In this document: positions 4,412 to 63,008 of the stretch, piece after piece
Layout: each line of letters begins with the position of its first letter
Position numbering within the stretch: the first letter of the stretch is position 1
From: an uncultured bacterium
GTDB lineage: Bacteria; Patescibacteriota; Doudnabacteria; UBA920
Assembly: GCA_963749445.1 (NCBI GenBank)
Contig: CAVVMJ010000004.1
Coordinates: 16,483-80,482, forward strand
Length of the DNA stretch: 64,000 nt
Reading direction: 5' to 3'
Notes under the pieces: model-generated
The model's database searches: none
Seen by the model: only the letters and a program-made list of their open reading frames with translations
What the model was told of the DNA's origin: nothing
Program-made: the position numbers and the translations under genes

Positions 4412-4728
4412 GGGGGCAACGCGCCTCGGCATAAAGGAGGCGCGGCAAAAAACAGATGGAGGGGAGTAGGAGATTCGCAGGCGCGCCGTTTTGAGGGGAA
4501 CGGCGCGTTTGATTTTTTAGACTCAATACGTTACGTTTTTTTCTATCTATCTCGAAGAGTGCAGCCGACCCGTTCGGTCAAACTCAGGATCGCCCTGAGC
4601 GAAGCCGAATGGGCGAGGAGAGATCTATTTATATCGTATTTTAACAGATTTTTCCCTCAGATGCATTCGGTCGAAATGGAAATACTTTTTCTATTTTGTC
4701 GCTGGAGTATTTATTTTCATACATCAAA

Positions 4729-8407: not shown

Positions 8408-8414
8408 TAGAGAA

Positions 8415-8795
8415 TTAAGAATTTTGAATATAGAATTTAGTTTTTTTGATTATTCCGTGGAGCAATTTGCTTAGTTCTGTGTAGGAGCTTTCCATGTTTG
8501 ATAAGTCGGTCGCAGTAATATAACCAAGTTTTTCCGAAAATAGAAGTTGGCTTTGGATTTCCGTTAAGGAACCAAGGGCGATCGAGTAAAACTGCAATTT
8601 TTCCTTGTATGACTGTCTGCTGAAACCTTCGGCAATATTTGAGTTTAAAGAAACAGCTGCCCGCCTTAATTGTGAAGTTAAGGCAAACAGCTCTTCTTTG
8701 GGAAACGATTTTGTAAGTTTATATATTTCTAAACCAAGCTTGAAAGCCGACTGCCAGACTTTAAGATCCGTAAATGATTTAATGGTTTTTTCCAT
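8415..8795 (-). CDS. Four-helix-bundle protein of the '23S rRNA-intervening-sequence protein' family
   Basis: FTDLKVWQSAFKL...IY..T..FPKEE.F.LTSQLRRAAVS...NIAEGFSRQS matches the TIGR02436/PF05635 signature. Length 126 aa. Confidence 0.8.
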   Translation of the reverse strand: MEKTIKSFTDLKVWQSAFKLGLEIYKLTKSFPKEELFALTSQLRRAAVSLNSNIAEGFSRQSYKEKLQFYSIALGSLTEIQSQLLFSEKLGYITATDLSNMESSYTELSKLLHGIIKKTKFYIQNS

Positions 8796-8830
8796 TGCAA
8801 TCCAAAATTCTAAATTCCAGATTCTGTATT

Positions 8831-9248
8831 CTATTTTCTGGATTTTTTGCGGGATTTTGCGGCCGGCGCTTTAGGCAAATGCTTGGCAATGTTTTTCCAG
8901 TGGCCGCGCAGTTCCCGCTTCAGAAGTTCCACTTCCTTGGGGCTGGCTTTTTCCAGTTTTTTGTATTTGGCCACGACTTCATCAATGGCTTGCTGATAGG
9001 TTTTTTGGCTCAGGGTCTTCATTTGCTCCAGCTGCTCCATAACTTCGCCTTTGGCTTTAACGGCCCAAGTTTTCATATGTTTTCGGTGCTTTGAGGCTTC
9101 TTTGCTGCCGTAAAAATAATAAGCTGCCGGCCGCGGCGGCCAACGCGGCCAAACCGGTGGCGGTTTTTACGAGCGGATGGGTTTTGTGTGCCGTTATAGT
9201 GCTCCTTTTGTATAATCTACTAAATAGACAAATCCAGAAAATATACAA
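8831..9248 (-). CDS. Hypothetical small protein: N-terminal TM segment plus basic coiled-coil C-terminus; frames joined by an apparent indel
   Basis: ORF 9057..9248 encodes a TM helix (TGLAALAAAAGSLLF). ORF 8831..9076 encodes a Lys-rich coiled-coil ending KSRKKSRK. No recognisable family. Confidence 0.3.
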
Positions 9249-10849: not shown

Positions 10850-10937
10850 GCTTATATTGTAGCATTTTTTGAAATTTATGCCATAATTAAAATAGTAGAT
10901 GAAACATTGGGGTTTATGCTATAATAAAGTCATCTTT

Positions 10938-12749
10938 ATGCCGAGTGAAACATCAAAACTTTACCCCGGTCATTTGCTGGCAACCGCACTTTCTGAGCTG
11001 AAAATGACCTCGCAACTTAGCGGCGAGCCTGAGATTTCAGTGCCGGATGCCAAGTTTGGCGATTACGCCACTAACGTAGCCTTGATTTTGGGCAAAAAGC
11101 TCAAATTGCCGCCGGTTGAGGTGGCCAATAAAATCGCGGACAGGCTAAAACAACTGGACACGGAGCGGGTATTTGCCGATATCAGCGTGGCCGGGGGGTT
11201 CATTAACCTTAATTTGTCGCGGGAATATTTGCTAAAAAACCTTTCGCGGATACTGGAGCAAAAGGACAACTTTGGCTCGCCCTGGAACAATGAAGACAAG
11301 ACCGTCATCGTGGAATATTTCCAGAATAACGTGGCCAAGCCCCCGCACGTCGGGCATTTGCGCAGCGCCGTGGTGGGCGACAGCCTGCTGCGGTTGTTCC
11401 GGTTTTTGGGATACCGGGCGGTATCGGATACCCATATCGGCGACTGGGGCACGCAGTTTGGCATTTTGATTTTGGCGTATAAGACTTTCGGCAAAAAATC
11501 CGTTGTGGAAAAAAATCCCATTGACGAGCTGAATAAGCTTTACGTGGAAATGTCGGCGAAAATAGAAGCGGATCCGGCTTTAAAGGAATCGGCAAAAGCT
11601 GAATTTAAAAAATTGGAAGACAGCGACGCGGAAAACCGCAAGCTTTGGCAATGGTTTGTTATGGAATCCGTGGCGGATTTTGAACGGTACCGGAAGCTGT
11701 TGGGGCTGCTGAGGTTTGACCATAACCTGGGCGAAAGTTTTTACGAAGACAAAATGCCGAGCATTTTATCGGAGCTGCAATCAAAGGGTTTAGTAACCAA
11801 AGGCGAGACTGGGGAATTATATGTTGATCTAGAAAAATATAAATTAGGACGATGCCTTTTGGCGAAGTCCGACGGCGCCACGACTTATCACCTTCGGGAT
11901 TTTGCCACTTATATTTACCGGAAGAAGGAATTTAATTTTTATAAAAATATTTATGTCGTAGACAACCGCCAGTCCCACCATTTTAGGCAGTTGTTCAAGG
12001 TTTTGGAATTGGCCGGGTACCCGGCGGGAAAAGACAGCTTCCACGTGGAGTTGGGATTTATGAGCCTGCCCGAAGGGCCGATTTCCACGCGCAAAGGAAA
12101 TATTATCAGCCTGCAAAATTTAGTTGATGAAGCGGAAAAGCGCGCTCTGGCCATAATTGAAGAAAAAAACCCCGGGCTTAAGAAAAAGAAGGCGGTGGCC
12201 GGCCAGGTCGCGCGCGCCGCCATAAAATATTTTGACCTTTCCCACAATCGCAAAACCGAATTCGTGTTCACTTGGGACAAAGCCTTGTCGTTTGAGGGGA
12301 ACACGGGGCCGTATTTGCAATATACGCACGCACGAATTTTTGGCATTTTAAGGAAGTCGTCTACCACCCCGTCCCGCCAAGGCGGGACACCCCTCCTGTC
12401 CCAGGAGGGGAATACTGCAGCTCCGCGGAGCTCTCCTCCTAAAATAGGAGGAGTACCCGCCGCAGGCGGGGGAGGTGGTATAAATCCGCACGAAATAGCT
12501 GTCCTCCGCAAACTCAACCAATTCCCCGAAGTCCTGGAACAGGTGGCCGTAGATTATATGCCGAATTTGTTATGCAATTATTTGTTTGAACTCGCACAGT
12601 CGTTTAATTCATTTTATCAGGAAATTCCGGTCTTGCAGGAAGAAGACGGCCAATTAAAATCATTCCGACTGCAACTGATTACCGCCACCGCGCAAGTCAT
12701 TAAAAATGGCCTGAATTTATTGGGTATAGAAGCCCCTGAAGAAATGTGA
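10938..12749 (+). CDS. argS: Arginine--tRNA ligase (ArgS), class I, carrying a ~130-bp in-frame palindromic insertion
   Basis: HIGH-type motif PPHVGHLRSAVVGD. Anticodon-binding C-terminus ...YLFELAQSFNSFY. The insert at 12361-12489 encodes TTPSRQGGTPLLSQEGNTAAPRSSPPKIGGVPAAGGGG and is built from nested GC-rich palindromes. Confidence 0.9.
   Translation: MPSETSKLYPGHLLATALSELKMTSQLSGEPEISVPDAKFGDYATNVALILGKKLKLPPVEVANKIADRLKQLDTERVFADISVAGGFINLNLSREYLLKNLSRILEQKDNFGSPWNNEDKTVIVEYFQNNVAKPPHVGHLRSAVVGDSLLRLFRFLGYRAVSDTHIGDWGTQFGILILAYKTFGKKSVVEKNPIDELNKLYVEMSAKIEADPALKESAKAEFKKLEDSDAENRKLWQWFVMESVADFERYRKLLGLLRFDHNLGESFYEDKMPSILSELQSKGLVTKGETGELYVDLEKYKLGRCLLAKSDGATTYHLRDFATYIYRKKEFNFYKNIYVVDNRQSHHFRQLFKVLELAGYPAGKDSFHVELGFMSLPEGPISTRKGNIISLQNLVDEAEKRALAIIEEKNPGLKKKKAVAGQVARAAIKYFDLSHNRKTEFVFTWDKALSFEGNTGPYLQYTHARIFGILRKSSTTPSRQGGTPLLSQEGNTAAPRSSPPKIGGVPAAGGGGGINPHEIAVLRKLNQFPEVLEQVAVDYMPNLLCNYLFELAQSFNSFYQEIPVLQEEDGQLKSFRLQLITATAQVIKNGLNLLGIEAPEEM
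12361..12489. repeat. Family-1 modular palindromic element (units A-B-C-D) inserted in frame in argS
   Basis: TACCACC-[GTCCCGCCAAGGCGGGAC]-[CCTCCTGTCCCAGGAGG]-...-[CTCCTCCTAAAATAGGAGGAG]-[CCCGCCGCAGGCGGG]-GGTGGTA. The same modules recur at 16165, 25381, 50906, 57617, 12841 and 39318. Confidence 0.8.
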
Positions 12750-12750: not shown

Positions 12751-12900
12751 CCGCTGATTGGTCGCTGACCCATTCGGCAAAGCTCAGGGTCACCCCGAGC
12801 GAAGTCGAGGGGTGATAGGGACGCTGATCAATCGCTGAAGTGCGGAGCTTCCCCTCCTTGCTGAGGAGGGGTGGACGCCGTAGGCGGACGGGGTGGTTGG
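12751..12900. repeat. Intergenic composite repeat: family-2 element (CCCATTCGGCAAAGCTCAGGGTCACCCCGAGCGAAGTCGAGGGGTG) followed by a family-1 module
   Basis: The same family-2 then family-1 arrangement recurs at 39157-39460. The family-2 core also occurs at 4555, 22941, 37871 and 38471. Confidence 0.75.
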
Positions 12901-14565: not shown

Positions 14566-14581
14566 ATATTAACTTTTTATT

Positions 14582-17500
14582 ATGCCAGAGGAAAAATCAC
14601 AACAATCACCACAATCTAATGCTCCCGATTTCAACAAACTGGAGCAGGAGATTTTAAAGTTTTGGGAAGAAAATAACATCTTCCAAAAATCCCTGGACCA
14701 GAGTTTGGGCAAGCCGCCTTACATTTTTTACGACGGCCCGCCGTTTGCAACCGGCTTGCCGCATTACGGCAGTATTTTGCCGTCTGTCATCAAAGACGCG
14801 ATCCCGCGCTACCAAACCATGAAGGGCCGTTTTGTGCGTAGGCGCTGGGGCTGGGATTGCCACGGCTTGCCCATTGAAAATATCGTTGAGCAAAATTTAA
14901 AAATCTCCGGCAAAAAACAAATTGAAGAAATCGGGCGTGGAGAATTTTAACAAAGTTTGCCGCGAAAACGTGCTGGGTTTTGCCGCCGAGTGGGGTAAAA
15001 TGGTCAAACGGATCGGCCGCTGGGTGGAGTTTGAAAATTCTTATAAGACCATGGACACGTCTTATATGGAATCCGTGTGGTGGGCCTTAAAGCAGATTTG
15101 GGACAAGAAATTGATTTATGAGGACAGGAAAATTTTGCTTTACTGCTCGCGTTGCGAAACGCCGATATCCAATTTTGAAGTGGCCATGGACAACTGCTAC
15201 CGCGACGTTACCGAAGAATCGGTTTACGCCAAGTTCAAGTTGCTGCCGCGGCAGAGGATCATTAACGACCTGACCAATGACAAAACTTATATGCTGGCCT
15301 GGACCACCACGCCGTGGACTTTGCCGGGCAACACTTCGCTGAACGTCGGCCCGGATATTAAGTATGTGTTGGTGGAGCAGAAACGGCGAGCGTTACATTT
15401 TAGCCAAAGACCGGCTGGATGTTTTGGACGGGGAGTACGAATTAGTTTCAGAATTTCCGGCCCGGTCCTTGGACGGTTTAGAGTATGAACCGCTGTATCC
15501 GGCCATTATTCCCTAAACGCACATAACGGCTTAAAGGTGCCGGATTTAGTTGGCGACCCGGCCCGCGCCCACGCGTGTATCTGGCGGATTTTGTGACCAC
15601 GAAAGACGGCACCGGCATTGTGCACAACGCGGCCATGTACGGCGAGGAAGATTACGAGCTGGCCAAGGAAAAAAATTTGCCGCGGCTGGATATGCTGGAC
15701 CATAAAGGCCAGTATTTGGAACGGACGCGTGCCCAAGCATTTGCAAGGCGTATTCTTTAAGGATGCCGAGCCGGTTGTACTTAAAGATTTAAAGACGCGC
15801 AACCTAGTTTACAAAATTTTAAATTACACCCACAGCTACCCGCACTGCTACCGCTGCGGCACGCCGCTGTTTTATAACGCCCTGCCCGCGTGGTTCATCA
15901 ACATCCAAAAAATCAAACCCCGCTTGCGGCAGCTCAACGCGCAACAAATGCAGTGGTACCCCGAATATTTAAAGGCCGGCCGGTTTGACAAAAGCGTGGA
16001 GAGTGCGCCGGACTGGAATATTTCCCGCAACCGCTATTGGGCCACGGCTTTGCCGTTTTGGAAGTGCCAGAATAAGGAATGCAAACACGTTGCCTGTATT
16101 GGATCAATATCAGAATTGATTGAACGGTCAATAAATTTTAAAGAAGTATACCCAGATTTTACTCCAACCACCCCGTCGGCTGACGCCGCCGCCCCTCCTC
16201 AGCAAGGAGGGCAAGCTTCCGACTACGCCAAGGCTTCGTCGGACGAGCCGCGGCTTCCCGCCGTAGCTTTAGCAAGGCGGGAGCCTCTCCTCCAAATCTT
16301 CGGAGGAGTACCCCGCGATAGCGGGGGAGGTGTATGAATCACTCGATCTTCATCGGCCTTACATTGATCAGGTAATCCTAAAATGCCCGCAAGTGCGGGG
16401 GGCAAATGATGCGCGTGCCCGAAGTCGTGGACTGCTGGGTGGAAAGCGGCTCTATGCCGTTCGCGGAACTGCACTATCCGTTTGAAAACACAGATTTATT
16501 TCAGCAGCGCTTCCCCGCGGATTTCGTGTCCGAGTACATCGGTCAGGTCAGGGCCTGGTATTATGTGATGTTAGTGATGTCCGCGGTTTTGTTCGACAAA
16601 GCACCGTTTAAAAATTTAATGACTACGGGTAACATTTTGGCCGAAGACGGCAGCAAGATGTCCAAGTCCAAGCAAAATTATCCCGACCCGAATTTATTGA
16701 TTGAAAGGTACGGCGCCGACGCGCTTGCGGTTTTATCTTTTGACCTGCCCGGTGGTGGGCGGCGACGACATCAACTTTTCCGAAAAGAGCGTGCAGGAAA
16801 TCAGCCGCAAGGTTAACATGTTAGTTTATAACGTGTGGTCGTTTTATCGGATGTACCAACCGCGGAATGACGCGGAATTTAACGCGGAAAAACGCGGAGA
16901 CGAATCCCAACATATTCTAGACAAATGGATTGTTTCCGGAACTTGCGCATTGGCAGGGAGAGGTCACAAAATATCTGGACGCTTACGATACCGTGCGGGC
17001 CGGCAAAATAATTACTGGTTTTATAAATGACTTGTCAACCTGGTACGTGCGCCGCAGCCGCGAGCGTATTAAGGAAAATTCCGAGGATTCCAAAAAAGCC
17101 CTGCAAACATTGGGCTTTGTATTGGTTGAATTGTCCAAAATGCTTGCGCCGTTTATGCCGTTTTTGGCGGATTTTATCTATAAAGATTTAACCGGGCAGG
17201 AATCGGTGCATTTATCCGAATGGCCAAAGCCGCGTTTGGAGCTGCACGATGAAAAGCTGGAAAGCGTGATGTCAACGGCGCGCCAGATCGTGGAGCAGGG
17301 TTTGTCCCTGCGCAGGGAAAACAGCCTCAAAGTTAGGCAGCCCTTGGCTGAACTGGAATATTTTATTAAGGAGAAAAACCATTTGCTCAGCGCGGAGCTT
17401 GAACAGGTTTTGGCCGATGAACTGAACGTCAAACTGGTGAGCGGCCGGTCGGATTTTGTGCCTAAAGCGGGCTGGGCGTACAGGGAAACGCCGACTTTTA

Positions 17501-17794
17501 AGCTTGCGCTGAATTTGGAATTATCCGAGGAGCTCAAAAAGGAAGGCGCTGGCTCGTGAATTGGAGCGCCTGGTGCAGGATTTGCGCAAAAAAAGCGGCC
17601 TCAAAGTCGGGGAACTGGTTGATGTTTATTACAACACGACTGATGGCGGGGTGGAGGAAGCGCTGCTGAATCTGTTTGACCGCAAAAAAACTTTTGTCAA
17701 CCAAGTGCAAAAAAGTTTGGAAGTGGAAGTGGATTTTGAAATTCAGGGACAGGTAGAAGGCAAGACGGTGTGGGTGGGGATGAATAAAATTTAG
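14582..17794 (+). CDS. ileS: Isoleucine--tRNA ligase (IleS), full length but split into at least 7 ORFs by +/-1 indels, with a family-1 palindromic element inserted (16165-16332)
   Basis: [10 protein letters not shown] (HIGH-like), [21 protein letters not shown], the CP1 editing region, the zinc motif CP(K)CGG and the KMSKS motif. The breaks I traced lie in homopolymer runs, for example GGG near 14928 and CCC near 15506. Confidence 0.85.
16165..16332. repeat. Family-1 modular palindromic element inside ileS (A-B-E-C-D arrangement)
   Basis: CCAACCACCCCGTC...GCCCCTCCTCAGCAAGGAGGGC...CTCTCCTCCAAATCTTCGGAGGAGTACCCCGCGATAGCGGGGGAGGTG. Encodes [15 protein letters not shown].... Confidence 0.75.
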
Positions 17795-17799: not shown

Positions 17800-17875
17800 A
17801 CGAACGTACGAACTATGTCGAACTACGAACTTTCCGTAGTTCGTAGTTCGTGCCGTTCGTAAGTTCGTAGGATAT
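17800..17875. repeat. Long imperfect palindrome built from TACGAAC units between ileS and recO
   Basis: CCTACGAACGTACGAACTATGTCGAACTACGAACTT / AAGTTCGTAGTTCGTGCCGTTCGTAAGTTCGTAGG, a ~35-bp stem. It may act as a terminator or processing site. Confidence 0.5.
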
Positions 17876-22065: not shown

Positions 22066-22611
22066 GCGCTTAAAATGCGGAGCGCGTCTTTTGAGGAGAT
22101 AGAGATTTTTTTTAACGTAGTACTGGAAGAAAAAGGCAATCCGGAAAGAAAGTTTTTTTAGCCTGGCCCGCCAGGCGGCAATAGTCGGAATGTTAACTCC
22201 TTACTTGGCGCTTTTTGATAGGCAGATATAAATTTTGGCGCAAAGTAATAATATATAGAGGCGTTTGTCGGCAGTAAAACCCGATTTTTCCCAATAAACC
22301 CAGCACCTTCCTGGGGAGAATTACATCCCGCAGGAAAAGTAACTGTCATACCAATCCTTCCCTGTAGTAAGCTGAAATTTCAGGGAAGGTGCTAGGTAAA
22401 TCCGGCCTTTATCGCTATATATTTTAATATTTCTTTGATGTCTCCCATATAGTTTAGTTGATGCAAAATCCATAAGCAAGGGTTTCATCCACAACCGGCC
22501 GATTTTGCCCATAAGTCCAGTAGGTTTTATTTTCTTGGCTTATTTTAAAGCAAATTTAGCAAAACGAGCTTGCAAAATTTTTTAAACCTGGTATGTGCTA
22601 TAATTTTATTG

Positions 22612-22640
22612 TCCACAGATTCACCGATTCCACAGATGCT
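22612..22640 (+). promoter_or_regulatory. Conserved motif TTGTCCACAGATTCAC(C/T)GATTCCAC upstream of uvrD; a second copy lies at 63963-63991
   Basis: Two near-identical ~29-bp copies. The uvrD upstream region also holds the inverted partner ATCTGTGCATCAGTGGACAA at 22677-22696. Confidence 0.3.
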
Positions 22641-22702
22641 GCAGTTTTAAAATTCTATATCTGTGCATTCAGTGTTATCTGTGCATCAGTGGACAAAGTA
22701 AT

Positions 22703-24958
22703 ATGGATTTATCATCTTTAAACGACAGGCAACAACAGGCAGTCACGGCCCCGCTCGGGCCGGTTTTAGTGCTGGCCGGGCCGGGGAGCGGGAAGACAAA
22801 GACTTTGACCCACCGCATTGCGTATATAATAGAGCAAAAGCTGGTGCGGTCGGAAAATATTCTGGCTTTGACTTTTACCAACAAAGCGGCTAAGGAGATG
22901 CGCGAAAGGGTTAGCGTGTTGCTTGCCCGATATAAATCGGCTGCCGACCCATTCGGCAAGCTCAGGGTCGCCCCGAGTGAGTCGAGGGGCGAAAGTTTAA
23001 CCATGGGTACATTCCATTCCGTTTGCGCCAGATTGCTGCGCAAGGAAATTCCGGCTTTGGGTTATGGTTCAGATTTTGTGATTTTTGACACCGAAGACCA
23101 AAGAAAAGTTTTGCGGGAAATTTGTGATGAGTTGCGTTTGGACAAAAAATTGCCCCCGTCTTTGTTTGCCGCTTTGATCTCCCGCGCTAAAAATCTTTTG
23201 CAAACGCCGGCGGAATTGGATTTGGGCCTGGATAATCCTTTTGCGGAAAAACTTCAGGAAGTTTACGCGCGCTACCAGGATTCTTTGTATAAACAAAACG
23301 CTCTGGATTTTGACGACCTGCTTATGTTAATGGTTAAAATTTTGCAGGGTAGCGACAAAGTCCTGCGCAAATACCAAAAACAGTTCAGTTATATTCTGGT
23401 GGATGAGTATCAGGACACCAACCTTGCCCAATACGCGCTTCTTCAGCTGCTTGGCGAGTATCACCAGCTTTTTGTGGTTGGCGATGATGCGCAGAGCATT
23501 TACGGCTTCCGTGGTTCGGACATCCGCAACATTTTAAACTTTGAAAAGGATTTTCCCGAATGCCAAATCATCAAGCTTGAGCAAAACTATCGTTCCTCGC
23601 AAAACATTTTGGCGGCCGCGCAAAAAGTCATTGAGCTAAACAGCGAGCAAAAACCCAAAACTTTGTGGACGAAAAATTCCTCCGGCGAGAAAGTTATTCT
23701 ATACGGCGCGGAGGACGAACGCGCGGAAGCCGAATTTGTGGCAAAACAAATAATCAGGTTATCTGCCGTAGAGGCACGCCGTGGCGTGCCTTCATCCGAT
23801 GAATTAGAATATGAAACCGATGATAGCCAAGCCGAACCAAAACCTTTTTCTATCCTTGATCGATTTATCAAAGCCAGAAAAATGCAGGGGCAGTATTCAA
23901 CATTGGGCCAAAGCCTTTTGCCGCAACTGCCGTCCAAACATGACAGCCTAAAGGAATTTTGCGTGCTTTACCGCACGCACGCCCAGAGCCGCGCTTTGGA
24001 AGAAGTTTTCATTCAAGCGGCGATCCCGTACCAGATTGTCGGCGGCTTAAAATTTTACGAGCGCAAGGAGATTAAGGACGTGTTGGCTTATTTGCGGCTG
24101 CTCCTAAATTTCCGCGATTTTGTGTCTTTAAAACGCGTCATTAACGAGCCGCCGCGGGGAATTGGGGATAAATCGTACTTAACGATTAGAGATTTCATAT
24201 TGGATTTTAATCAGAGGAATGTTAACGGCGCGGCGTCGGAAAATCGGAAAATCGGAAAATCGGATTCCGACATCCGACTTTCCGACTTCCGAATCGCTTT
24301 GGCAGACGTCCAGCTACCCCCCAAACAATGGCAATCTGCCCAGGATTTTTTTGCCACGCTGGAAGATTTATCCGAACTGCCGAAAACCGCGACTTTGCCC
24401 CAACTGATGAAGGCCATAACCAGGCGTTCGGCTTACGAAAAGTTTTTGCGCGACGGTTCGGAGCAGGGCGAGAGCCGCTGGGAAAACGTGGAAGAGCTGT
24501 GGACCGTGGCCGCCAAGTTTGGCAACTTGCCCTGGCGCGAAGGCGCGCAGGCGCTTTTGGAGGAAGTGGCTTTGCTTTCGGAAATTGATTCCAAGGACGA
24601 ACATCAGGACAGCGTAACCTTAATGACGCTTCACAGCGCCAAGGGTTTGGAATTTGACAACGTGTTTTTCGTGGGGCTGGAAGAGGGGATTTTGCCGCAC
24701 TCGCGCAGTTTGCTGGATCCAAAAGAATTGGCCGAAGAGGTGCGCTTGGCTTACGTCGGGCTCACGCGCGCGCGCAAGCGCTTGTTTTTGGTGTACGCGC
24801 AACATCGCAGGATTTTTGGCAATGTGCAGGCCGGCCGCCCTTCCCGCATTTTGCGCGTTTTGCCCAAAGAAAATTTGCAGCTTTTGGGGGCAGCCAAAGA
24901 AATTTATTTAAATGATGCCGTTGACGGCGGGATTACGGTGGAAGAGATGGAGTATTAA
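22703..24958 (+). CDS. uvrD: UvrD/PcrA-type ATP-dependent DNA helicase (SF1) carrying three separate in-frame palindromic insertions
   Basis: Walker A LAGPGSGKTKTLT, motif II LVDEYQDTN, C-terminal VGLTRARKRLFL. Inserts: family-2 at 22941-22990 (ADPFGKLRVAPSESRG), the GTAG-type hairpin GTAGAGGCACGCCGTGGCGTGCCTTC at 23775-23800, and the CGGAAAATCGG/CCGACTTCCGA palindrome at 24230-24300. Confidence 0.85.
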   Translation: MDLSSLNDRQQQAVTAPLGPVLVLAGPGSGKTKTLTHRIAYIIEQKLVRSENILALTFTNKAAKEMRERVSVLLARYKSAADPFGKLRVAPSESRGESLTMGTFHSVCARLLRKEIPALGYGSDFVIFDTEDQRKVLREICDELRLDKKLPPSLFAALISRAKNLLQTPAELDLGLDNPFAEKLQEVYARYQDSLYKQNALDFDDLLMLMVKILQGSDKVLRKYQKQFSYILVDEYQDTNLAQYALLQLLGEYHQLFVVGDDAQSIYGFRGSDIRNILNFEKDFPECQIIKLEQNYRSSQNILAAAQKVIELNSEQKPKTLWTKNSSGEKVILYGAEDERAEAEFVAKQIIRLSAVEARRGVPSSDELEYETDDSQAEPKPFSILDRFIKARKMQGQYSTLGQSLLPQLPSKHDSLKEFCVLYRTHAQSRALEEVFIQAAIPYQIVGGLKFYERKEIKDVLAYLRLLLNFRDFVSLKRVINEPPRGIGDKSYLTIRDFILDFNQRNVNGAASENRKIGKSDSDIRLSDFRIALADVQLPPKQWQSAQDFFATLEDLSELPKTATLPQLMKAITRRSAYEKFLRDGSEQGESRWENVEELWTVAAKFGNLPWREGAQALLEEVALLSEIDSKDEHQDSVTLMTLHSAKGLEFDNVFFVGLEEGILPHSRSLLDPKELAEEVRLAYVGLTRARKRLFLVYAQHRRIFGNVQAGRPSRILRVLPKENLQLLGAAKEIYLNDAVDGGITVEEMEY

Positions 24959-24960: not shown

Positions 24961-25044
24961 AAGCATATAGCAGTTAGCATTTAGCAGATAGGGGTTTTGT
25001 ATTCTCGCCTAAATGCTATATGCTAACTACTAAATGCTAAACCA
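24961..25044. repeat. Family-3 intergenic element (TTAGCATTTAGC-rich imperfect hairpin) between uvrD and rsmA
   Basis: AGCATATAGCAGTTAGCATTTAGCAG...CGCCTAAATGCTATATGCTAACTACTAAATGCTAA. Related copies at 40268-40350 and 47407-47480 occupy the same stop-to-start position. Confidence 0.7.
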
Positions 25045-25989
25045 ATGAATATTGATAAGCTCAAAAATTTACTCCAGCGCTATGGTTTAAAACCCAATTT
25101 TACTTATGGGCAGAATTTTTTGGTTGACGATGATGTGTTGGACGAAATTGTTGAGGCGGCGGAAATCACACCGGCTGACAATATTCTGGAAATCGGTCCG
25201 GGCATTGGGAATTTAACGCGGCTGTTATGCGAACGCGCGGGATTTGTGCTATCCGTGGAAAAAGACCCAAAATTTTTGCCGATATTAAAAGCCGTAAAGA
25301 AAGATCATAAAAATTTCCGTTTTGAAATTGCGGACGCTTTAAAATTTGATTTTTTGAAAGAACTAAATCAGCTGCAGTCATCTCCTCCTAATATAGGAGG
25401 AGTATCCCGCGAAGCGGGGAGAGGTGGTATTTCGGGGGCAGCTACCACCCCGTCCCGACAAGTCGGGACACCCCTCCTGTCCCAGGAGGGGAATACTGTG
25501 TCCTATAAGGTCGCCGCCAACATCCCGTACTACATTACCGGAAAAATTTTGCGGATGTTACTGGCCGCGAAAATTAAACCGACCAGCATTACCATTTTGA
25601 CGCAAAAAGAAGTGGCACAGACCTTGGCGGCTAAGGCGGGGGATTTATCCTTGCTCGCGATTTCCGTTCAGCTTTACGGCGAGCCGCGGTTGGTTAAAAT
25701 CGTGCCGGCAAAAAGTTTTTATCCGCAGCCCAAAGTGGATAGCGCGATTGTGCGGATTGATATCCATCCGAAACCAAAATATAATTTTGCCGATGAAAAA
25801 CAATTCTTCCGTGTTTTGCGCGCCTGCTTTGCCGGCAAAAGAAAACAGCTTCACAACACGTTGAAGAATAATTTGGGTTTGGAAAAAGGACGGGTTGATA
25901 AAATTTTATCAGCCGCCAAAATAAATCCCGCGGCCCGGCCGCAGGAGCTGAGTATTGCGCAGTGGATTGATTTGAGTAAAAAAATTTAA
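25045..25989 (+). CDS. rsmA: 16S rRNA (adenine1518/1519-N6)-dimethyltransferase RsmA/KsgA with an in-frame family-1 palindromic insertion
   Basis: GQNFLVDDDVLDEIV...ILEIGPGIGNLT (SAM-binding). The insert at 25381-25497 encodes SSPPNIGGVSREAGRGGISGAATTPSRQVGTPLLSQEGNT between conserved blocks. Confidence 0.85.
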   Translation: MNIDKLKNLLQRYGLKPNFTYGQNFLVDDDVLDEIVEAAEITPADNILEIGPGIGNLTRLLCERAGFVLSVEKDPKFLPILKAVKKDHKNFRFEIADALKFDFLKELNQLQSSPPNIGGVSREAGRGGISGAATTPSRQVGTPLLSQEGNTVSYKVAANIPYYITGKILRMLLAAKIKPTSITILTQKEVAQTLAAKAGDLSLLAISVQLYGEPRLVKIVPAKSFYPQPKVDSAIVRIDIHPKPKYNFADEKQFFRVLRACFAGKRKQLHNTLKNNLGLEKGRVDKILSAAKINPAARPQELSIAQWIDLSKKI

Positions 25990-26220: not shown

Positions 26221-26739
26221 TCAGTTTCCCAACCGGACCTCATCTCCGGTTTTTATTTTATTCGCGTCGCTCCATCCCGCGTTTACTTCCAGAACTTGAT
26301 CAATCATCGCCGGCGGATAGTAGAGGGTCAACTTATCGCTCAGGGATTTTGGCGCCGGCACGTTTGGCGTGATGCCGATGATTTTGCCGTCGTTTATCCA
26401 AATCAAATCCAAATCAAAATGCATGCGCGGCATCCAGAAGGCGGGTTTGATGCCGTTGCCTCCGCCGGAGGCGGATCCGCCTCCGGCGGAAAAATCAAAC
26501 AGCATACCATCATCGTATGCCATTGATTCGCGATCAGACAACCCCTCTGCCATATCAGCGGATGTCGTGGCAATTTGCACGTTTAAAGTTTGATCGGATA
26601 TTTTTATTTGGTGATTGTAAAGCGAAACTGTTTTATCAGGTACAACAACCGGCGGAGCGGGGGATTGCTTGGCGCAGCCAGCGGCTAAAAGCAAAAACAG
26701 CAGCGGCAAACCGATATGTTTATTTAGAATTTTGACCAT
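26221..26739 (-). CDS. DUF192 (COG1430) family secreted protein with a perfect 30-bp palindrome in frame
   Basis: N-terminal signal/lipobox-like MVKILNKHIGLPLLFLLLAAGC. C-terminal LTLYYPPAMIDQVLEVNAGWSDANKIKTGDEV. The palindrome TCCGCCGGAGGCGGATCCGCCTCCGGCGGA at 26461-26490 encodes SAGGGSASGGG. Confidence 0.55.
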   Translation of the reverse strand: MVKILNKHIGLPLLFLLLAAGCAKQSPAPPVVVPDKTVSLYNHQIKISDQTLNVQIATTSADMAEGLSDRESMAYDDGMLFDFSAGGGSASGGGNGIKPAFWMPRMHFDLDLIWINDGKIIGITPNVPAPKSLSDKLTLYYPPAMIDQVLEVNAGWSDANKIKTGDEVRLGN

Positions 26740-37393: not shown

Positions 37394-39154
37394 ATGCAAA
37401 GCGAACATATCCAAACAATCCAAAACCTAATTAAAACTACGGCGGTTTTGACGTCCGCGGAAAAGAGCGAGTGGCTGGAATTGGTGGATTTGATGAACGA
37501 CCGGCAGCTGTTGGAATTGGAGCGGATTTTAGAAGACGCAAACAAGAATCAAGAATCAAGAATCAAGAGTCAAGAAGCAAAACTTACACAGGCGGGCGTG
37601 TCTTTGGCTCAAGTTCGGCCGGCGATTCCATCGGCGATTCCAAAATCAACCGTTCCGACCGCCAAGCCATTGCCGCTTGCCTCGCCCCAATTTTCCCAAA
37701 ATGATATTTTGACGCCGGGAAAGAAAGAACTTTCTAGCACAAGCGCGATTGTAAAATCCTCAAAAATTGGAGCGGGACCGGTTCCGCCCGCGCCAAAAAA
37801 ACTTCCGATTGCCCAGGAGCCGGGGCCCGGACCTTCCTTTAAGCATATTCTCAATTTCCCCAAAGCGGGCGGCCCGTTCGACAAAGCTCAGGGCCGCCTC
37901 GAACGAAGCCGAGATGGCGGCGGCGGTGCGACTTTTCCGCCGTCTGCGGGATCATTGCCGCTTCCGCAAGTCCGTCTGGAAAGCAAAACCATAGAGCCGA
38001 AAAAAGAGTCGCCGTTTTTGAGCAAGCTCAAGGCTATCTTTTCCGAAAAAGAATTGCCGCCCCCGCCGCAAATTCCGCCAGGCGATATTTTGATATCTGG
38101 CAAGAAAGATTTTTCCAAACCAAGCACTGTTGTGGCTTCTTCAAAAATTGGAGCAAGCGCGACTGGGCACACTGATAAATTAGCCGCGTCTAAAACATCC
38201 CCAAAGCCGTTATCGGAATACAAAAAGTCCGAAGCTAGGCCCAAGCCGTCGCCCAAGCTCGAACAACCCGCCAGCACCACCATCAATATTTTCATGAATA
38301 AAGGTGAACCGGCAAAATTTTCCGATTTAGAGCAGGTTGTCAAGGCCATACAGCGACCGTCGGAGTCTTCTCCGATTTTAGGCAAGAGCGAGCCGGCCGA
38401 GGCGGATTTATCAGCGCCAGCTCCAATCGGGGCCTCGCAGCCGCCGCAGCCAAAAATCAGTTATGAGCCCGCGGCCCATTCGGCACAGCTCAGGGCCGCC
38501 CCGAGCATGGCCGAGGGGGCGGCCGCCGCCGTGTCAACCGCGATGTCGGCTGCCAAGGCCGCTTCCGCCGTGGCCCCGAGCGCAGCCGAGGCGGAAGCGG
38601 TTAGCCCGGCTCCCACCCCGTGGAATCAGGAAGAGTCCGGTCTGTACAAGCCGAATAAAAAACCTGATTCGGGAGCCGTGGCGGCGAAAACAACGGCCAC
38701 CCAACAAGGCCTGGCGCCGGGATTAAATTTTTCCGAAGGGCCAAGCGCGGCCGCGCTGAAAAGCAGGCTAATGACCGAGCCGGGCCCGGGACCAAACAAG
38801 CAGGCATCTTCCGCAGTTTCCGCGTCGGGGAGAATTATTTTGCAGGAAAAGCCGGGAGATAATATGAAATTGGAAACCCTGAACGATGTTACGGCCCTTA
38901 AGCCCGATGATTTACAGAAACACGCCACCGGCACCCTGTTCCGCAAATGCCAAAAGCTCATTAGCCAGTACGGGCCGCACGAAGTGGTTTTTCGTTTGGA
39001 GCAAAGTCCTCTATATAAAGCTTACATCAATACCGGCGTGGCTTGGCTGAAAGAAGGGGCCAGAAAAGCCCAAGGCGTCGCCACTTTGCAGCTGCCCGGA
39101 GAAGATTTTGAACGCTTTGTGGATTTTTTGATTATGTTGCGCAGTAGAGCGTAG
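37394..39154 (+). CDS. Pro/Ala/Ser-rich repeat protein with a structured C-terminal domain; contains a tandem 9-mer repeat and two in-frame family-2 palindromic insertions
   Basis: Duplicated block DILTPGKKELSSTSAIVKSSKIGAGP / DILISGKKDFSKPSTVVASSKIGASA. Tandem CAAGAATCA x4 at 37546-37575 (NQESRIKSQE). Family-2 inserts at 37871-37920 and 38471-38520. Confidence 0.4.
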   Translation: MQSEHIQTIQNLIKTTAVLTSAEKSEWLELVDLMNDRQLLELERILEDANKNQESRIKSQEAKLTQAGVSLAQVRPAIPSAIPKSTVPTAKPLPLASPQFSQNDILTPGKKELSSTSAIVKSSKIGAGPVPPAPKKLPIAQEPGPGPSFKHILNFPKAGGPFDKAQGRLERSRDGGGGATFPPSAGSLPLPQVRLESKTIEPKKESPFLSKLKAIFSEKELPPPPQIPPGDILISGKKDFSKPSTVVASSKIGASATGHTDKLAASKTSPKPLSEYKKSEARPKPSPKLEQPASTTINIFMNKGEPAKFSDLEQVVKAIQRPSESSPILGKSEPAEADLSAPAPIGASQPPQPKISYEPAAHSAQLRAAPSMAEGAAAAVSTAMSAAKAASAVAPSAAEAEAVSPAPTPWNQEESGLYKPNKKPDSGAVAAKTTATQQGLAPGLNFSEGPSAAALKSRLMTEPGPGPNKQASSAVSASGRIILQEKPGDNMKLETLNDVTALKPDDLQKHATGTLFRKCQKLISQYGPHEVVFRLEQSPLYKAYINTGVAWLKEGARKAQGVATLQLPGEDFERFVDFLIMLRSRA

Positions 39155-39156: not shown

Positions 39157-39460
39157 CCGCTGATTGGTCGCTGGCCCATTCGGCTATGCTCAGGGTCACC
39201 CCGAGCGAAGTCGAGGGGTGATAGGTACGCTGATATGACGCTGAATCCGATAGTTAAAGTTGAACGAAATGTCAAAGATTGTCAAAGATTTTTTGTATGA
39301 GAAGGAATCCTTTGAGATCCGCGGAGTTCTCCTCCTGGAACAGGAGGAGTACCCCGACTTGTCGGGGGGAGGTGGTAGATTTTCCGCAGTTTCATACCGC
39401 CCCGTCCGCTTCGCGGCCACCCCGCCTATCTTAGGCGGGGAGCTCCGCGGTTCAGCGACC
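39157..39460. repeat. Intergenic composite repeat (family-2 element followed by family-1 modules)
   Basis: GATTGGTCGCTGGCCCATTCGGCTATGCTCAGGGTCACCCCGAGCGAAGTCGAGGGGTGATAGG ... TCTCCTCCTGGAACAGGAGGAGTACCCCGACTTGTCGGGGGGAGGTGGTA. The ORF 39260..39505 is only the translation of this repeat. Confidence 0.75.
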
Positions 39461-39667: not shown

Positions 39668-40267
39668 TTGCATTTTAATAGCGGTTTCAAAAAAATAAAA
39701 GTGGCGCCGACCAAACGCCTTAAAAGGCCCATAATTTGCGATTATGATGACAAAAATAACATTAACTTACAAAAATTCCTCATGCCTGCAAAAGGCGTTT
39801 GGAATGGGAGGTTGATATACTGGGTGCAATTTCCCGTACCTCAATTTACCGAAGTGGAAGATAAAATTATCGGATCGCTTACCGTTAAGCAGTTCGGGGT
39901 GATTTTTGGCGGCGGCGTGCTGATTTTTTTGGCTTTTACCTTGACCAAAAGCGTTGTTGTGCTGATTTTCGCTGCCGTCATATTCGGCCTGCCGACTTTA
40001 GGTTTGGCTTTTGCCAGGCTTAACGGGCGGCCGATGTACAACATGATCGGGAATTTCGTGGGTTTTTTGACCAGCGCCAAGGTCTTAGTGTTCCATAAGG
40101 AAGGCTCTTTGGTTTCCGATCGGGAGAGAAAAGACAAAACCCCGCCGGTTGCCGCCGCCCCAAACCCGGATGGAACAAAAGCCGTAAGCCCGAAACAAAG
40201 GCTAAGGGAGGTTAATAAGATGCTGGAACAAAACGCGCAGAAGGAAGAGGAGTTGTTCAAGAAATGA
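39668..40267 (+). CDS. PrgI/VirB3-like small two-TM protein immediately upstream of VirB4
   Basis: KIIGSLTVKQFGVIFGGGVLIFLAF matches the PrgI-family 'F.GPLTLRQF.YL..G' segment preceding two TM helices. Gene order PrgI-like then VirB4 is as in monoderm T4SS. Confidence 0.45.
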   Translation: MHFNSGFKKIKVAPTKRLKRPIICDYDDKNNINLQKFLMPAKGVWNGRLIYWVQFPVPQFTEVEDKIIGSLTVKQFGVIFGGGVLIFLAFTLTKSVVVLIFAAVIFGLPTLGLAFARLNGRPMYNMIGNFVGFLTSAKVLVFHKEGSLVSDRERKDKTPPVAAAPNPDGTKAVSPKQRLREVNKMLEQNAQKEEELFKK

Positions 40268-40350
40268 GCATTTAGCATTTAGCATTTAGCGATTAGCCAG
40301 ACATGTTTGGCTAAATGCTAACTGCTAACTGCTAAATGCTAACTGCCAGA
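40268..40350. repeat. Family-3 intergenic element (TTAGCATTTAGC-type)
   Basis: GCATTTAGCATTTAGCATTTAGCGATTAGCCAGACATGTTTGGCTAAATGCTAACTGCTAACTGCTAAATGCTAACTGCC. Confidence 0.7.
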
Positions 40351-43300
40351 ACTATGAAACTGGAAATGCAAAATAAAAATAAAGCCGCAGTCAAATCCAC
40401 GCAAAGTTTTTTGAGAATCAGCGAAATCAAGAACGACGTGGTGGTTTTGGACGACGGCACGCTGCGCGCGATTTTGTCCGTGTCCAGCACCAATTTTGAT
40501 TTAAAAAGCCAGGAAGAACAGAACGCGATTATTTATAATTTCCAACGGTTCGTGAATTCCCTGGAATTTTCCATCCAGATTCTGATGCAAAGCCGCAAAA
40601 TGGAAATCGGCAGCTATTTGGAAAAGCTTAAAAATATCGCGGAAAAGCAAACCAATGAGCTTTTGCGGGTGCAGACGTTGGAATACATAGAGTTCATTAA
40701 CCGGCTGATTGAAAACGCCAGCATTATGAATAAGAATTTTTACGTGATTGTGCCGCTGGATGAAAGCATTTTCCCACCGGCCGGCGGATTCTTTAGCAAA
40801 ATATTCGGCGGCGGCAAGGCCAAGGCGGTAAAACAGCGCATTGAAAATTTTGAGAAGCTTAAGGAAAAATTGGAAAACCGAGTGACGGCGGCTTCGGCCA
40901 ACCTGTCCAGCATCGGCCTGCAGTCCGTGCAGCTGAAAACCGAAGGCCTAATCCAGCTGTATTACAATTCTTACAATTTTGAATCCGCACCCGTGGTGGA
41001 TACCGGCAAGCTGAAGGATATGAATGTTGTTCAATAAGGTGATACCAATATACTAATGCATACGAATGATACTAATAATACGAATCCTGTATCTGATGGC
41101 TTAATTTATAAGGAATTATCGTATTTGATTAACGGAGTTTTGTATTCCACCCACAATGAATTGGGGCCATATGCAAGGGAAAAACAGTATGTTGATGTGG
41201 CGGAGAGAATATTTAAGGAAAAAAGTATTAAATGCATTAAAGGACAACGAATCGGTGATTCAGGCAATATTTTGGATTTGCTGGTGGACGATAAAGTTCT
41301 CTTAGAATTTAAGGCCAAACGGATTTTGACGAAAGAAGATTACTATCAAACCCAAAGATACTTGCAGGAGACAGGTTTAAAATTAGCGATTCTAGTTAAT
41401 TGTAGGGACAAGTATATTAAGCCCAAGCGCATAGTTAGGATTGATAATTGGAAAAATCCGCATTAGTATTATTCGTATTATTCGTATTGATTAGTATATT
41501 AGTATCTTATGAGTTTATTTAAAATCAAAACCGAAAAAGAGCTGGAAGAAAAAAAGTCCATGCTCCAGGAAGCCGAAGCCGAGCACGATTTAAGCAAAAA
41601 ATTGGGCGACGTGGAAAAAATCTACCGCGAAGGCCTGACTACGCTCAAAGGACCTAATCGCTCCGGCCAGCCTGAAATTCCAGAATTCTTATTTTGAACT
41701 CAACGGCAAATTCGCCCGCAGTTTTTTTGTGCTGGCTTATCCGCGGTTTTTATCCAGCAACTGGCTGTCATTCATCATCCAGGCCGAAGGCGCCCTGGAT
41801 TTGTCCATGTTCATTTATCCGATTGATTCGGAGACCATTTTAAAAAAACTTAAATCCAAAGTCGGGGAACTTGGCAGCCAGATGTCCATTAACCAGGAAA
41901 AGGGCATGTGCGCGACCCGATGCTGGAAACGGCCTACAAAGACGTGGAGGGCTTGCGCGACCAGCTGATGCAGGGCACGGAACGGTATTTCCGCTTTGCC
42001 CTTTATTTTACCATTTACGCCGAAGACTTAAAGGAACTGGACAAAGATTCCAGCTACGCTTGGAGAGCGCGTTTGGGGCCAAGTTGATTGTGACCAAGCG
42101 CGCGATAATGCAAACCCAGGACGGCTTTAATTCCACGCTGCCTTTGGGCAAAGACCAGCTGGCTGTGGCAACAACATGAACACCAGCCCGCTGTCCACCT
42201 GTTTTCCGTTTGTGTCCTCGGATTTAACCAGCAATGACGGGATTTTGTACGGCATCAACCGGCATAACAACAGCCTGATTCTGTTTGACAGGTTCGCTTT
42301 GGAAAACGCCAATTCCGTGGTTTTCGCCAAATCCGGCGCGGGCAAATCTTACGCGGTCAAATTGGAAGTTTTGCGCTCATTTGATGATCGGCACGGAAGT
42401 GATTATCGTGGACCCGGAAAACGAATACAAACATTTGGCCGACGCCGTGGGCGGGACTTATTTGAGCGTGAGCTTGAATTCCGACTCGCGCGATCAATCC
42501 GTTTGATTTGCCGCGGCCATTGAAGGCGAGGATAATGCCGACGTACTGCGCTCGGCCGTGGTCAATTTGTTGGGCCTGTTTATCTTTGATGCTCGGCAAA
42601 CTTAACCCGACGGAAGAAGCCTTAATGGACAAGGCCATTTGGCAGACTTACGCCAAAAAGGATATTACGGCCCAGTCGGATTTTACGACCGTGGAGTATC
42701 CGACCATGAACGATTTGGTGGAAATTTTGCACGGCATGGTGGGCGCGGAAAGTCTGGCACAGCGGCTCGAGCAAATTCACGGAAGGCACTTTTGCCGGAC
42801 TGTTTAACCAGCCCACCAACGTGGTGCTCAACAACCAGCTGGTGGTGTTTTCCATCCGCGATTTGGAAGATGAACTGCGGCCCATAGCCATGTACATGAT
42901 TTTAAATTACATTTGGAACGATTGTGCGCAGTGAGCTGAAAAAGCGCATTTTGGTGGTGGACGAAGCCTGGATTATGATGCAGCACGAGGACAGCGCGCG
43001 CTTTTTGTTCGGCATTGCCAAGCGGGCGCGCAAATATTATCTCGGCCTGACCACGATAACCCAGGACGTGGCGGATTTTATGGCGTCGCCATACGGCAAG
43101 CCGATTGTCACCAATTCTTCCATCCAATTGTTGTTAAAACAATCGCCGGCGGCCATTAACATTATCGCGGAAACTTTCTTTTTGACCGAAGGCGAAAAAT
43201 ATCTGCTTTTGGAAAGCGAAGTCGGGGAAGGCATTTTCTTTGCGGGGTTAAAACACGCGGCCATAAAAATTTACGCTTCCTACGTGGAAGACCAGATTAT

Positions 43301-47480: not shown

Positions 47481-47490
47481 CAGCTTTTTT

Positions 47491-62487: not shown

Positions 62488-62514
62488 TGTAGGGGAGGAT
62501 ATTATCCTCCCCTA
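62488..62514. repeat. REP-type hairpin with GTAG head, GTAGGGGAGGATATTATCCTCCCCTAC, immediately flanking the RAYT gene
   Basis: A perfect stem with the conserved 5' GTAG tetranucleotide typical of REP sequences. A sister copy GTAGGGGCGGATATTATCCGCCCCTAC lies at 62724-62752, inside the RAYT ORF. Confidence 0.65.
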
Positions 62515-62516
62515 CA

Positions 62517-63008
62517 TCAAGGGAAATTTTTTGGATTTTCCTTATCCAATTCCCATTGTTTCGGGTTGTTGCCGATATATTCACGAATGCGATTTAAATC
62601 GGCATCGTCGCGTATGACGTGGTCGTAAAAAGATTTTTGCCAGGAGAAATTGGGTAGACCGATTAATCTTAAATTTTTCGATGCCGCCTGTTTAAAATAT
62701 CCGATGATTTTGGGCAGGCCTCTGTAGGGGCGGATATTATCCGCCCCTACGGGGACAATAATGATAATTCCATGAACATGGTTGGGCATAATCTGAAAAA
62801 TGTCCAATGATGTATTTTGGTAATGTTCGGGGATTTGCTTCCAAAATTTTTCAATTGTTTTTCCATGCCCATTCAAAACCATTTCTCCGCCCACAATCTC
62901 GCCAAAACAGCAAATCCTATCCTGCACGCAAACCGTCACAAAATAATAACCGGCCCGGGAATAATCAAATTCCTTTAGCCGGTTATGTTTTCTTAACGAA
63001 AACAACAT
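62517..63008 (-). CDS. REP-associated tyrosine transposase (RAYT, IS200/IS605-like HUH Y1 transposase)
   Basis: YYFVTVCVQDR, HUH motif MPNHVHGII, catalytic Tyr context SWQKSFYDHVIRDDADL. The in-frame REP hairpin encodes VPVGADNIRPYRG. Confidence 0.75.
   Translation of the reverse strand: MLFSLRKHNRLKEFDYSRAGYYFVTVCVQDRICCFGEIVGGEMVLNGHGKTIEKFWKQIPEHYQNTSLDIFQIMPNHVHGIIIIVPVGADNIRPYRGLPKIIGYFKQAASKNLRLIGLPNFSWQKSFYDHVIRDDADLNRIREYIGNNPKQWELDKENPKNFP

Follow-up and report, generated by a model that had tools for sequence, protein, structure and literature searches.

The uvrD/pcrA gene at 22703..24958 (+ strand) of a 64-kb stretch of DNA from an uncultured Doudnabacteria bacterium (the whole 64,000-nucleotide (nt) stretch is called the window here) has very probably absorbed three independent hairpin-forming DNA segments, which are tolerated in surface loops of the encoded helicase. 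The segments lie in the interval under study, 22941-24300. A preliminary description of this DNA had reported three unrelated palindromes, all in frame, in one helicase open reading frame (ORF). All three of its strings are present where it placed them, each in frame in the ORF, and they represent three classes of repeat with unrelated sequences.

The gene product is an intact UvrD/PcrA-type superfamily 1A (SF1A) helicase. The ORF is unbroken and encodes 751 amino acids (aa), with matches to the Pfam families UvrD-helicase (E=6e-88, 295 bits vs a cut-off of 23) and UvrD_C (E=2e-74, 251 bits vs a cut-off of 25.6), and to the PDB structures of PcrA (1pjr, E=1e-147) and E. coli UvrD (2is1, E=1e-125). 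The helicase motifs GxGxGKT, TFTNKAA, DEYQDT, VGDxxQSIY, YRS/T, TxHxxKGLEF and VGxTRA are all present and are invariant in a 48-sequence protein alignment (A1). The predicted AlphaFold structure displays the four-subdomain fold 1A/1B/2A/2B, with TMt values of 0.78 against apo PcrA (1qhg) and 0.76 against apo UvrD (3lfu). The closest database proteins are 62-78% identical, and those that are named come from metagenome-assembled genomes (MAGs) of Candidatus Doudnabacteria / Patescibacteria. The gene order LysM/CHAP, uvrD, rsmA, DUF192 is common to the window and a 949-kb contig of a relative.

In alignment A1, 47 relatives are aligned to the window protein, and comparisons at the nucleotide level are based on 14 relatives with DNA (L081-L094). 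A scan of metagenome contigs with a clade-specific fragment alignment gave 13 usable loci; a scan of genome contigs with generic UvrD patterns (A1) found only relatives of 43% identity or less, which are useless for the recognition of empty sites. In the closest relative (L081/P0002) all three uvrD sites are empty, as is the site of a further insert in rsmA, described below. The empty P0002 is the sister of the window uvrD in a neighbor-joining tree.

The first insert is a copy of a dispersed repeat, termed family 2, and its assignment as a repeat-family insert is solid. It measures 45 nt (22943..22987, +), has the sequence GACCCATTCGGCAAGCTCAGGGTCGCCCCGAGTGAGTCGAGGGGC, within which the string first quoted, CCCATTCGGCAAGCTCAGGGTCGCCCCGAGTGAGTCGAGGGG, is found, and corresponds to aa 81-95, DPFGKLRVAPSESRG. 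The insert is absent from 47/47 aligned relatives, where it appears as a clean 15-codon gap, and the empty sites can be read in the DNA as GCCGCC/GAAAGC in L081 and GCAGCC/GAAAGC in L082 (the slash marks the junction). Because CGA stands at both junctions, the boundary is uncertain by up to 3 nt. The preliminary description had proposed a search for the family-2 core elsewhere, and five copies besides insert 1 are found in the window, all on the + strand. Three of the five are intergenic, two of these directly after a stop codon: one at 4560..4620, one directly 3′ of the ArgRS stop codon (12760..12820) and one shortly 3′ of ORF 37394-39154 (39166..39226). The remaining two lie within ORF 37394-39154 and are read in two different element frames, as GPFDKAQGRLERSRDG at 37864..37924 and as AHSAQLRAAPSMAEG at 38466..38526. 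Four of the copies (at 12767, 38475, 39175 and 4564) match insert 1 with 88-93% identity over 31-46 nt (91% over 46 nt for the one at 12767); the copy at 37864..37924 falls outside this group.

The family-2 consensus folds into an imperfect hairpin of 16 pairs, some of them U-G, and the 6 copies show no compensatory changes (A3). A protein search with translations of family 2 as queries yielded two candidates and no hits, thus the family-2 peptide is not widespread in the database searched. BLAST did not detect family 2 in any of the relatives' loci, and as far as the present data go it is confined to this genome. The run of A residues is 1 nt shorter in the uvrD copy (CAAG vs CAAAG); its interpretation as a frame-restoring deletion was dropped, as the ends of the element are undefined.

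The second insert (23768..23793, +) encodes VEARRGVPS and makes the protein about 7 aa longer than the modal relative. It consists of GTAG, then A and an 8-bp perfect stem with a 4-nt loop, AGGCACGC-CGTG-GCGTGCCT (23772-23791), in which the stem arms occupy 23772-23779 and 23784-23791 and the loop is CGTG; the DNA fold has a z of -3.4. GTAG stands at one end of the stem-loop, as in the GTAG-tagged repetitive extragenic palindromes (REPs), which have stems of 5-13 bp and loops of 2-20 nt (PMC3733652, Table 1). By itself an 8-bp stem is unremarkable in an ORF of 2.25 kb, since 103/500 synonymous-codon shuffles (21%) have one. However, perfect hairpins with a GTAG tag are found at 3 loci in the window, with 5 hits over both strands vs 0.33 expected, an enrichment of about 15-fold.

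In the 14 relatives with DNA, the same codon position carries fillers of several kinds. Canonical GTAGGGG...CCCCTAC REPs are found at site 2 in L084 (GTAGGGGCGGGTTTGAAACCCGCCCCTAC), L085 (GTAGGGGAGGGTTTGAAACCCTCCCCTAC) and L092 (GTAGGGAAGGGTCTAGACCCTTCCCTAC), a compound REP in L087 and a tandem-array hairpin in L082, while L086 and L089 carry the subtype of the window, G[T/C]AG-stem-loop-stem-TTCATC. The site is empty in six relatives (L081, L088, L090, L091, L093 and L094). The window hairpin thus lies at an indel hot spot where relatives carry REPs. The surrounding segment (23756..23947, +; aa 352-415) is a variable extension of the 2A domain, about 50 aa longer than in PcrA/UvrD, and the PcrA and UvrD alignments break at query positions 351-415. 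The extension holds a clade-conserved helix, FSILDRFIKA(K/R)KMQ, with a helix predicted at aa 384-398.

The other two GTAG hairpin loci of the window lie within and beside a gene (62517..63008, -) whose product resembles the REP-associated tyrosine transposases (RAYTs) and which is a candidate mobiliser of GTAG REPs. One REP, GTAGGGGCGGATATTATCCGCCCCTAC (62724..62750), is in frame within this RAYT-like gene, where it reads VGADNIRPY, and the other, GTAGGGGAGGATATTATCCTCCCCTAC (62489..62515), directly follows its stop codon. The protein displays an HUH-type motif, HVH, at aa 77-79, and a tyrosine motif, YIGNNP, whose counterpart in the alignment to E. coli TnpA-REP (4er8), the sole PDB match (E=0.12), is YIYINP. 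When the 9 aa encoded by the internal REP are excised, the score against NCBIfam NF047646 rises to 55.3 bits (E=6.5e-15).

The third insert (24236..24292, +; translated as SENRKIGKSDSDIRLSDFR) is a hairpin with arms made of tandem arrays. Tandem Repeats Finder resolves it into (TCGGAAAA)x3.6 at 24236-24264 (period 8, 100% matches) followed by (TTCCGAC)x3.9 at 24265-24292 (period 7, 81% matches). The arms are 17 nt long and 88% complementary, and the fold has a z of -4.6 vs dinucleotide shuffles (DNA) and of -3.8 vs synonymous-codon shuffles. The string quoted in the preliminary description shows two of the three full 5′ units, and the hairpin is real and stronger than first quoted. The segment around it, aa ~503-530, is about 15 aa longer than in relatives, and 26/48, the closest included, have the short form ...LNLGGRDKELxxKDFRxAF.... 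The 3′ arm merges with native conserved (K/S)DFR codons that are also kept in relatives free of the insert.

Insert 3 is not confined to this genome, as a distant relative shares it. At the same site, L082/L083 (P0003) matches the insert core with 91% identity over 47 nt and has the upstream FNQ(R/Y)N codons in common with the window; between the window and L082, uvrD as a whole is 69% identical, and only about 50% at third codon positions. Two more relatives have related units at site 3: a single one, CTTTCCGACTTCCGAAT, in L092, and a 3′ array alone, (TCCGACTC)x3, without a matching 5′ array, in L089. Nested or compound REPs are also seen at site 3 in L087, L089 and L092, and L082 has a second in-frame hairpin of about 40 aa (11556-11780, CACCCCCACACCAAAT...ATTTGGTGTGGGGG) shortly downstream of its insert 3 copy.

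Outside uvrD, BLAST searches with inserts 2 and 3 gave only chance matches of 10-12 nt in the window and in the relatives' loci. Insert 3 is unique in the window, and its unit is not repeated there at many loci. The window does hold many further inverted pairs of 7-9-nt tandem arrays, with units that are all different. Directly after the uvrD stop codon there is an intergenic hairpin (24962..25041; DNA z = -6.2) with arms of 7-nt arrays (AGCATTT-like / CTAAATG), to which copies at 40267-40346 and 47408-47487 are related. Array pairs of the same structural class are found at 40267/40310, 43359/43405 and 47408/47455. At 17835 one array stands singly, beside a perfect hairpin at 17819-17850. Insert 3 is therefore assigned to a structural class, one that is common in this genome, and not to a sequence family.

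As a relative shares insert 3 at the same site, and as its 3′ arm runs over native codons, local generation is a live alternative to invasion. Insert 3, and perhaps all tandem-array hairpins, might have been made in place by slippage of TCCGA-CT-TCCGA followed by an inverted template switch, in a process that recurs across lineages; extended in this way, local origin is given somewhat less than an even chance. For insert 3 itself, local slippage and inverted copying from the seed TCCGA-CT-TCCGA appears about as likely as transposition. A local origin would agree with the finding of no other copy in the window or in ~100 kb of the relatives' loci outside uvrD, with the continuity between the 3′ arm and native conserved codons, with the single unit of L092 and the lone 3′ array of L089, and with unit sequences that differ in every array pair of the window. 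Recurrence from a conserved seed would also explain the likeness to L082 despite the tree. Against it, units of 8 and 7 nt must expand in sets that keep the frame, the FNQ(R/Y)N codons common to the window and L082 point to common descent or exchange of the whole segment, and intermediate forms within one lineage were not seen.

A bolder extension of this idea is unlikely. Tandem-array hairpins in some Doudnabacteria lineages would be self-templating elements that nucleate on short native direct repeats, grow by slippage and inverted copying, and have their pairing preserved by intrastrand repair. If so, they would supply housekeeping enzymes with new protein loops, made de novo at a small number of permissive sites, and insert 3, unusually conserved and located in the regulatory domain 2B, may already have been co-opted.

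All three sites are hot spots of length variation. Orthologs at least 4 aa above the modal length number 7/48 at site 1, 14/48 at site 2 and 22/48 at site 3, and the fillers found at any one site are unrelated in sequence among orthologs. In the 14 relatives with DNA, the fillers of sites 2 and 3 fold at -20 to -73 kcal/mol, and the short forms at -1 to -20. The six genomes that are short at site 2 are short at site 3 as well, thus the repeat load is a property of the genome. The preliminary description held that conservation of these segments in related UvrD proteins would speak against insertion. This test does not refute insertion. Insert 1 is missing from every aligned relative and insert 2 from the closest and from most others, with other palindromes where that site is filled; insert 3 is absent from 26/48, the closest included.

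The PcrA, UvrD and UvrD1 alignments have gaps at the three insert positions. In the AlphaFold model, the predicted local distance difference test (pLDDT) value is below 50 at aa 80-96, 357-404 and 511-522, and the rest of the model is confident. The domain limits of UvrD are reportedly those of Lee and Yang (2006), i.e., 1A at 1-89 and 215-280, 1B at 90-214, 2A at 281-377 and 551-647, and 2B at 378-550. With these limits and the PcrA/UvrD alignment, site 1 maps to UvrD ~80-84, at the end of 1A shortly before the TFH strand, site 2 to ~338-345 in 2A and site 3 to ~430-455 in 2B, the domain that controls the activity of UvrD-family helicases. The inserts had been expected in loops of 2B and 1B, but on the alignments and these limits they fall in 1A, 2A and 2B.

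The favored explanation is that several classes of palindromic repeats insert or arise throughout these genomes. Those in uvrD would persist because their lengths are divisible by three, they bring in no stop in the frame used and they fall in permissive surface loops, and the same loops would be filled repeatedly in orthologs because selection removes insertions elsewhere. Insert 1 would belong to a dispersed imperfect-palindrome repeat, present in at least 6 copies within 64 kb, and would have been moved by some enzyme. Insert 2 would be a REP with a GTAG tag, a kind that goes with RAYT (HUH/Y1) transposases, and its mobilisation by a RAYT-type enzyme is plausible. Insert 3 would probably have grown, at least partly, through slippage and inverted duplication that started from the native TCCGACTTCCGA (SDFR) codons. 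The inserts would be translated, into peptides such as DPFGKLRVAPSESRG and ENRKIGKSDSDIRL, within disordered loops, and would be neutral or nearly so.

Several observations weigh against this explanation or parts of it. The fold of insert 1 as single-stranded DNA has a z of only -1.9, and 8/200 shuffles fold equally well; it is barely above shuffled DNA, so that "palindrome" is a generous label and the family-2 segment stands as a repeat copy absent from relatives more than as the palindrome first reported. BLAST detected no second copy of the insert 2 sequence in the 64-kb window, and its membership in a REP family thus rests on its form and on the fillers of relatives at the same site. It ends in TTCATC and not CTAC, and is thus a different REP from those at the RAYT-like gene, which are of the GTAGGGG type and unlike insert 2 in sequence; transposition of insert 2, and the pairing of this enzyme with this substrate, would have to be supposed. 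The RAYT-like protein itself scores below the cut-off of 80 for NF047646 (48.6 bits, E=7e-13) and below the cut-off of 23 for Pfam Y1_Tnp (22.4 bits), and being under both curated cut-offs it is called RAYT-like only. Between insert 2 and its counterparts in L086/L089, our own reading of the sequences finds one compensated stem pair, G-C to C-G, together with a 1-nt change in loop length, which could mean that the pairing of insert 2 is maintained. The likeness of insert 3 to L082, set against the tree and the divergence of the two genes, is less well explained by simple neutral decay than by constraint, lateral exchange or repeated origin. In addition, other genes of the window are frameshifted, and assembly quality is thus not beyond doubt, though uvrD is intact. 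The claim of repeated, tolerated invasion by several repeat families is supported, but insert 3 may have been generated locally.

Some of these points are shared by the view that the inserts or their hairpins are selected features and not passengers, which is also improbable. Roles that may be envisaged are ribosome or polymerase pausing at domain junctions by mRNA or DNA hairpins, peptide loops that tune 2B, and altered UvrD activity that changes mutation or recombination rates, an effect that Di Nocera et al. raised as a speculation for repair genes tagged by REPs (PMC3733652). Insert 3 with its upstream codons is ~90% identical to L082 vs 69% gene-wide, eight relatives retain the potential for a hairpin at site 2 although their sequences there are very different, one pair is compensated between the window and L086/L089, site 3 lies in the regulatory 2B domain, and in other phyla the genes tagged by REPs include an excess of repair genes (PMC3733652). 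However, the closest relative and about half of the orthologs are without each insert and keep all helicase motifs, and the fillers at each site range from 4 to 67 aa and are unrelated in sequence. The inserts are predicted to be disordered, the same kinds are found in unrelated housekeeping genes, and templated repair within a strand can keep the arms complementary without selection.

That these are ordinary lineage-specific UvrD loops with coincidental palindromes is very improbable. The frequency of 8-bp stems among the codon shuffles, the folding of insert 1 little above shuffled DNA and the variable length of these loops across the whole UvrD family would allow it, but it is already contradicted for insert 1, which belongs to a dispersed repeat family and is lacking in 47 relatives, and it does not accommodate the ~15-fold enrichment of GTAG hairpins, the canonical REPs at the same site in relatives, or the z of -4.6 and tandem-array arms of insert 3. 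Least probable of all are assembly or sequencing artefacts of the MAG: the frameshifted IleRS, Clp ATPase and VirB4-like genes could reflect indel errors, but such errors do not make in-frame palindromes of 45-60 nt, an identical protein is recorded from two sources (NCBI and ENA), and independent assemblies of relatives show the same phenomenon in the same loops. Inteins, introns and programmed frameshifting were ruled out by the size of 26-60 nt, the lack of stops and of splicing motifs, and the continuous ORF.

In-frame palindromes are also found in the ArgRS, RsmA, DUF192, RecG, ComF-like and RAYT-like genes of the window. The rsmA gene (25045-25989, +) holds a composite palindrome at 25375-25500 that encodes about 40 aa, SSPPNIGGVSREAGRGGISGAATTPSRQVGTPLLSQEGNTV, with an RNA minimum free energy (MFE) of -65 kcal/mol; orthologs have other palindromic fillers in the same loop, or it is empty (L081, L089, L090 and L093). 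In ArgRS (10899-12749, +) an in-frame insert of 44 aa at 12355-12485 consists of 4-5 stacked hairpins (MFE -80 kcal/mol), falls in the DALR anticodon-binding domain and is built of the repeat families D2/D3/D7, as is the rsmA insert. A perfect palindrome with a 13-bp stem, TCCGCCGGAGGCGGATCCGCCTCCGGCGGA, lies at 26461-26490 in the DUF192 gene (26221-26739, -), where it reads SAGGGSASGGGN in frame; the Pfam match of this protein implies about 22 extra residues at the palindrome. Hairpin copies are in frame at 50996-51112 in RecG (50635-52839, -), a second repair helicase, and at 57617-57673 in the ComF-like (phosphoribosyltransferase-like) gene (57475-58251, -). The hairpin families of these two genes are CCCCTCC...GGAGGGG / GTCCCGAC...GTCGGGAC.

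Directly upstream of the uvrD start codon, at 22609-22696, there is an imperfect inverted repeat of 28 nt, 79% complementary, with repeated CCACAGAT-like units. It may be a further array-type hairpin, in the promoter or 5′ untranslated region of uvrD. Inverted 7-nt arrays (AGAATTT / AAATTCT) at 8411-8440 / 8805-8833, and 9-nt arrays at 41042-41085 / 41462-41505, flank two small genes that encode a 23S rRNA-intervening-sequence protein (PF05635, E=4e-39) and a PDDEXK_3 protein (PF13366), and these arrays resemble cassette ends.

Some genes of the window are broken. IleRS (14573-17556) extends over at least 5 frame segments, with frameshifts near 14930, 15340-15520, 15700, 16340-16400 and 16820-16920, and one of the breaks coincides with a stop-ending palindromic repeat at 16287-16337; it is either a pseudogene or a case of indel errors in the assembly. 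A Clp-type ATPase, recognised by the look of its N-terminal sequence, is spread over three ORFs (59158-61740, -), and four short ORFs at 41871-43358 (+) have the look of a VirB4/TrbE-type ATPase; both are candidates for frameshifts or pseudogenes. An IS1595-family (ISXO2-like) DDE transposase with a zinc ribbon is also found (49666-50460, -).

Within one small locus, nature has in effect tried out which loops of a well-studied motor protein will take foreign sequence: three repeat classes are present in one gene, and dozens of independent fillers are found at the same three loops in orthologs. It also extends the pattern of REPs in repair genes, seen in Proteobacteria and others, to the candidate phyla radiation (CPR), where such a repeat load is unexpected in tiny genomes. 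For the annotation of CPR MAGs, it would mean that translated palindromic repeats account for many of the "lineage-specific insertions" of conserved proteins. The uvrD inserts do not reveal a new mechanism, and selfish palindromic repeats in genes are a known phenomenon (RPEs 2000, the Rickettsia palindromic elements; REPs in repair genes 2013), although the CPR case is apparently first noted here: in the literature searched, nothing was found that links CPR/Patescibacteria to in-frame or extragenic palindromic inserts, or the cyanobacterial short tandemly repeated repetitive (STRR) sequences to hairpins.

Bacterial MITEs (miniature transposable elements with inverted repeats), which include ERIC, BOX and others, are small non-autonomous repeats that occasionally form translational fusions in genes (PMC10969869). 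The uvrD inserts are likewise small repeats inside genes that would form translational fusions. MITEs have terminal inverted repeats, target-site duplications and a length of 70-300 bp, whereas family 2 is an imperfect hairpin of ~45-60 nt, with only an ambiguous 3-nt CGA repeat at its junctions. The STRR sequences of cyanobacteria are said to be tandem heptamer arrays with locus- or family-specific units, mostly intergenic (Mazel et al. 1990). Insert 3 has arms of similar tandem arrays of 7-8-nt units, as do the hairpins at 24962, 40267, 43359 and 47408. Compared by description, the arrays found here differ in that they are inverted pairs that form long hairpins, that one pair lies in coding sequence and that the host is not a cyanobacterium.

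The RPEs are the classic in-frame palindromic inserts in genes (Ogata et al. 2000, 2002; PMC10969869). As summarised in PMC10969869, they are alike in that a small reduced genome has several palindrome families inserted in frame, in housekeeping genes unrelated to one another and at places that the protein fold can accommodate. By the same account RPEs are ~100-150 bp, specific to Rickettsia and encode conserved peptides, whereas the inserts here are 26-60 nt in a CPR host. They are thus set apart by description, in size and in host, and the resemblance is functional only.

The closest parallels are to the GTAG REPs and the RAYT-REPtron systems. Di Nocera, De Gregorio and Rocco (2013) defined GTAG- and CGTC-tagged REPs, among which intragenic units encode 10-30 aa; intragenic REPs are enriched in replication and repair genes, with UvrD/Rep helicases named, and different REPs are found near the same site among Xanthomonas recB orthologs (PMC3733652). 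The uvrD locus agrees with these systems in that a short GTAG-tagged stem-loop lies wholly inside the ORF of a repair helicase, and in that the RAYT-like gene is flanked by GTAG REP(s) (62489-63008), as in a REPtron. It differs in its host, a member of the CPR/Patescibacteria, a lineage outside the coverage of PMC3733652, and in the uvrD hairpin, which is single in the 64-kb window and ends in TTCATC instead of CTAC. The RAYT-like protein differs from known RAYTs in being divergent, below the curated cut-offs, and in itself holding an in-frame REP.

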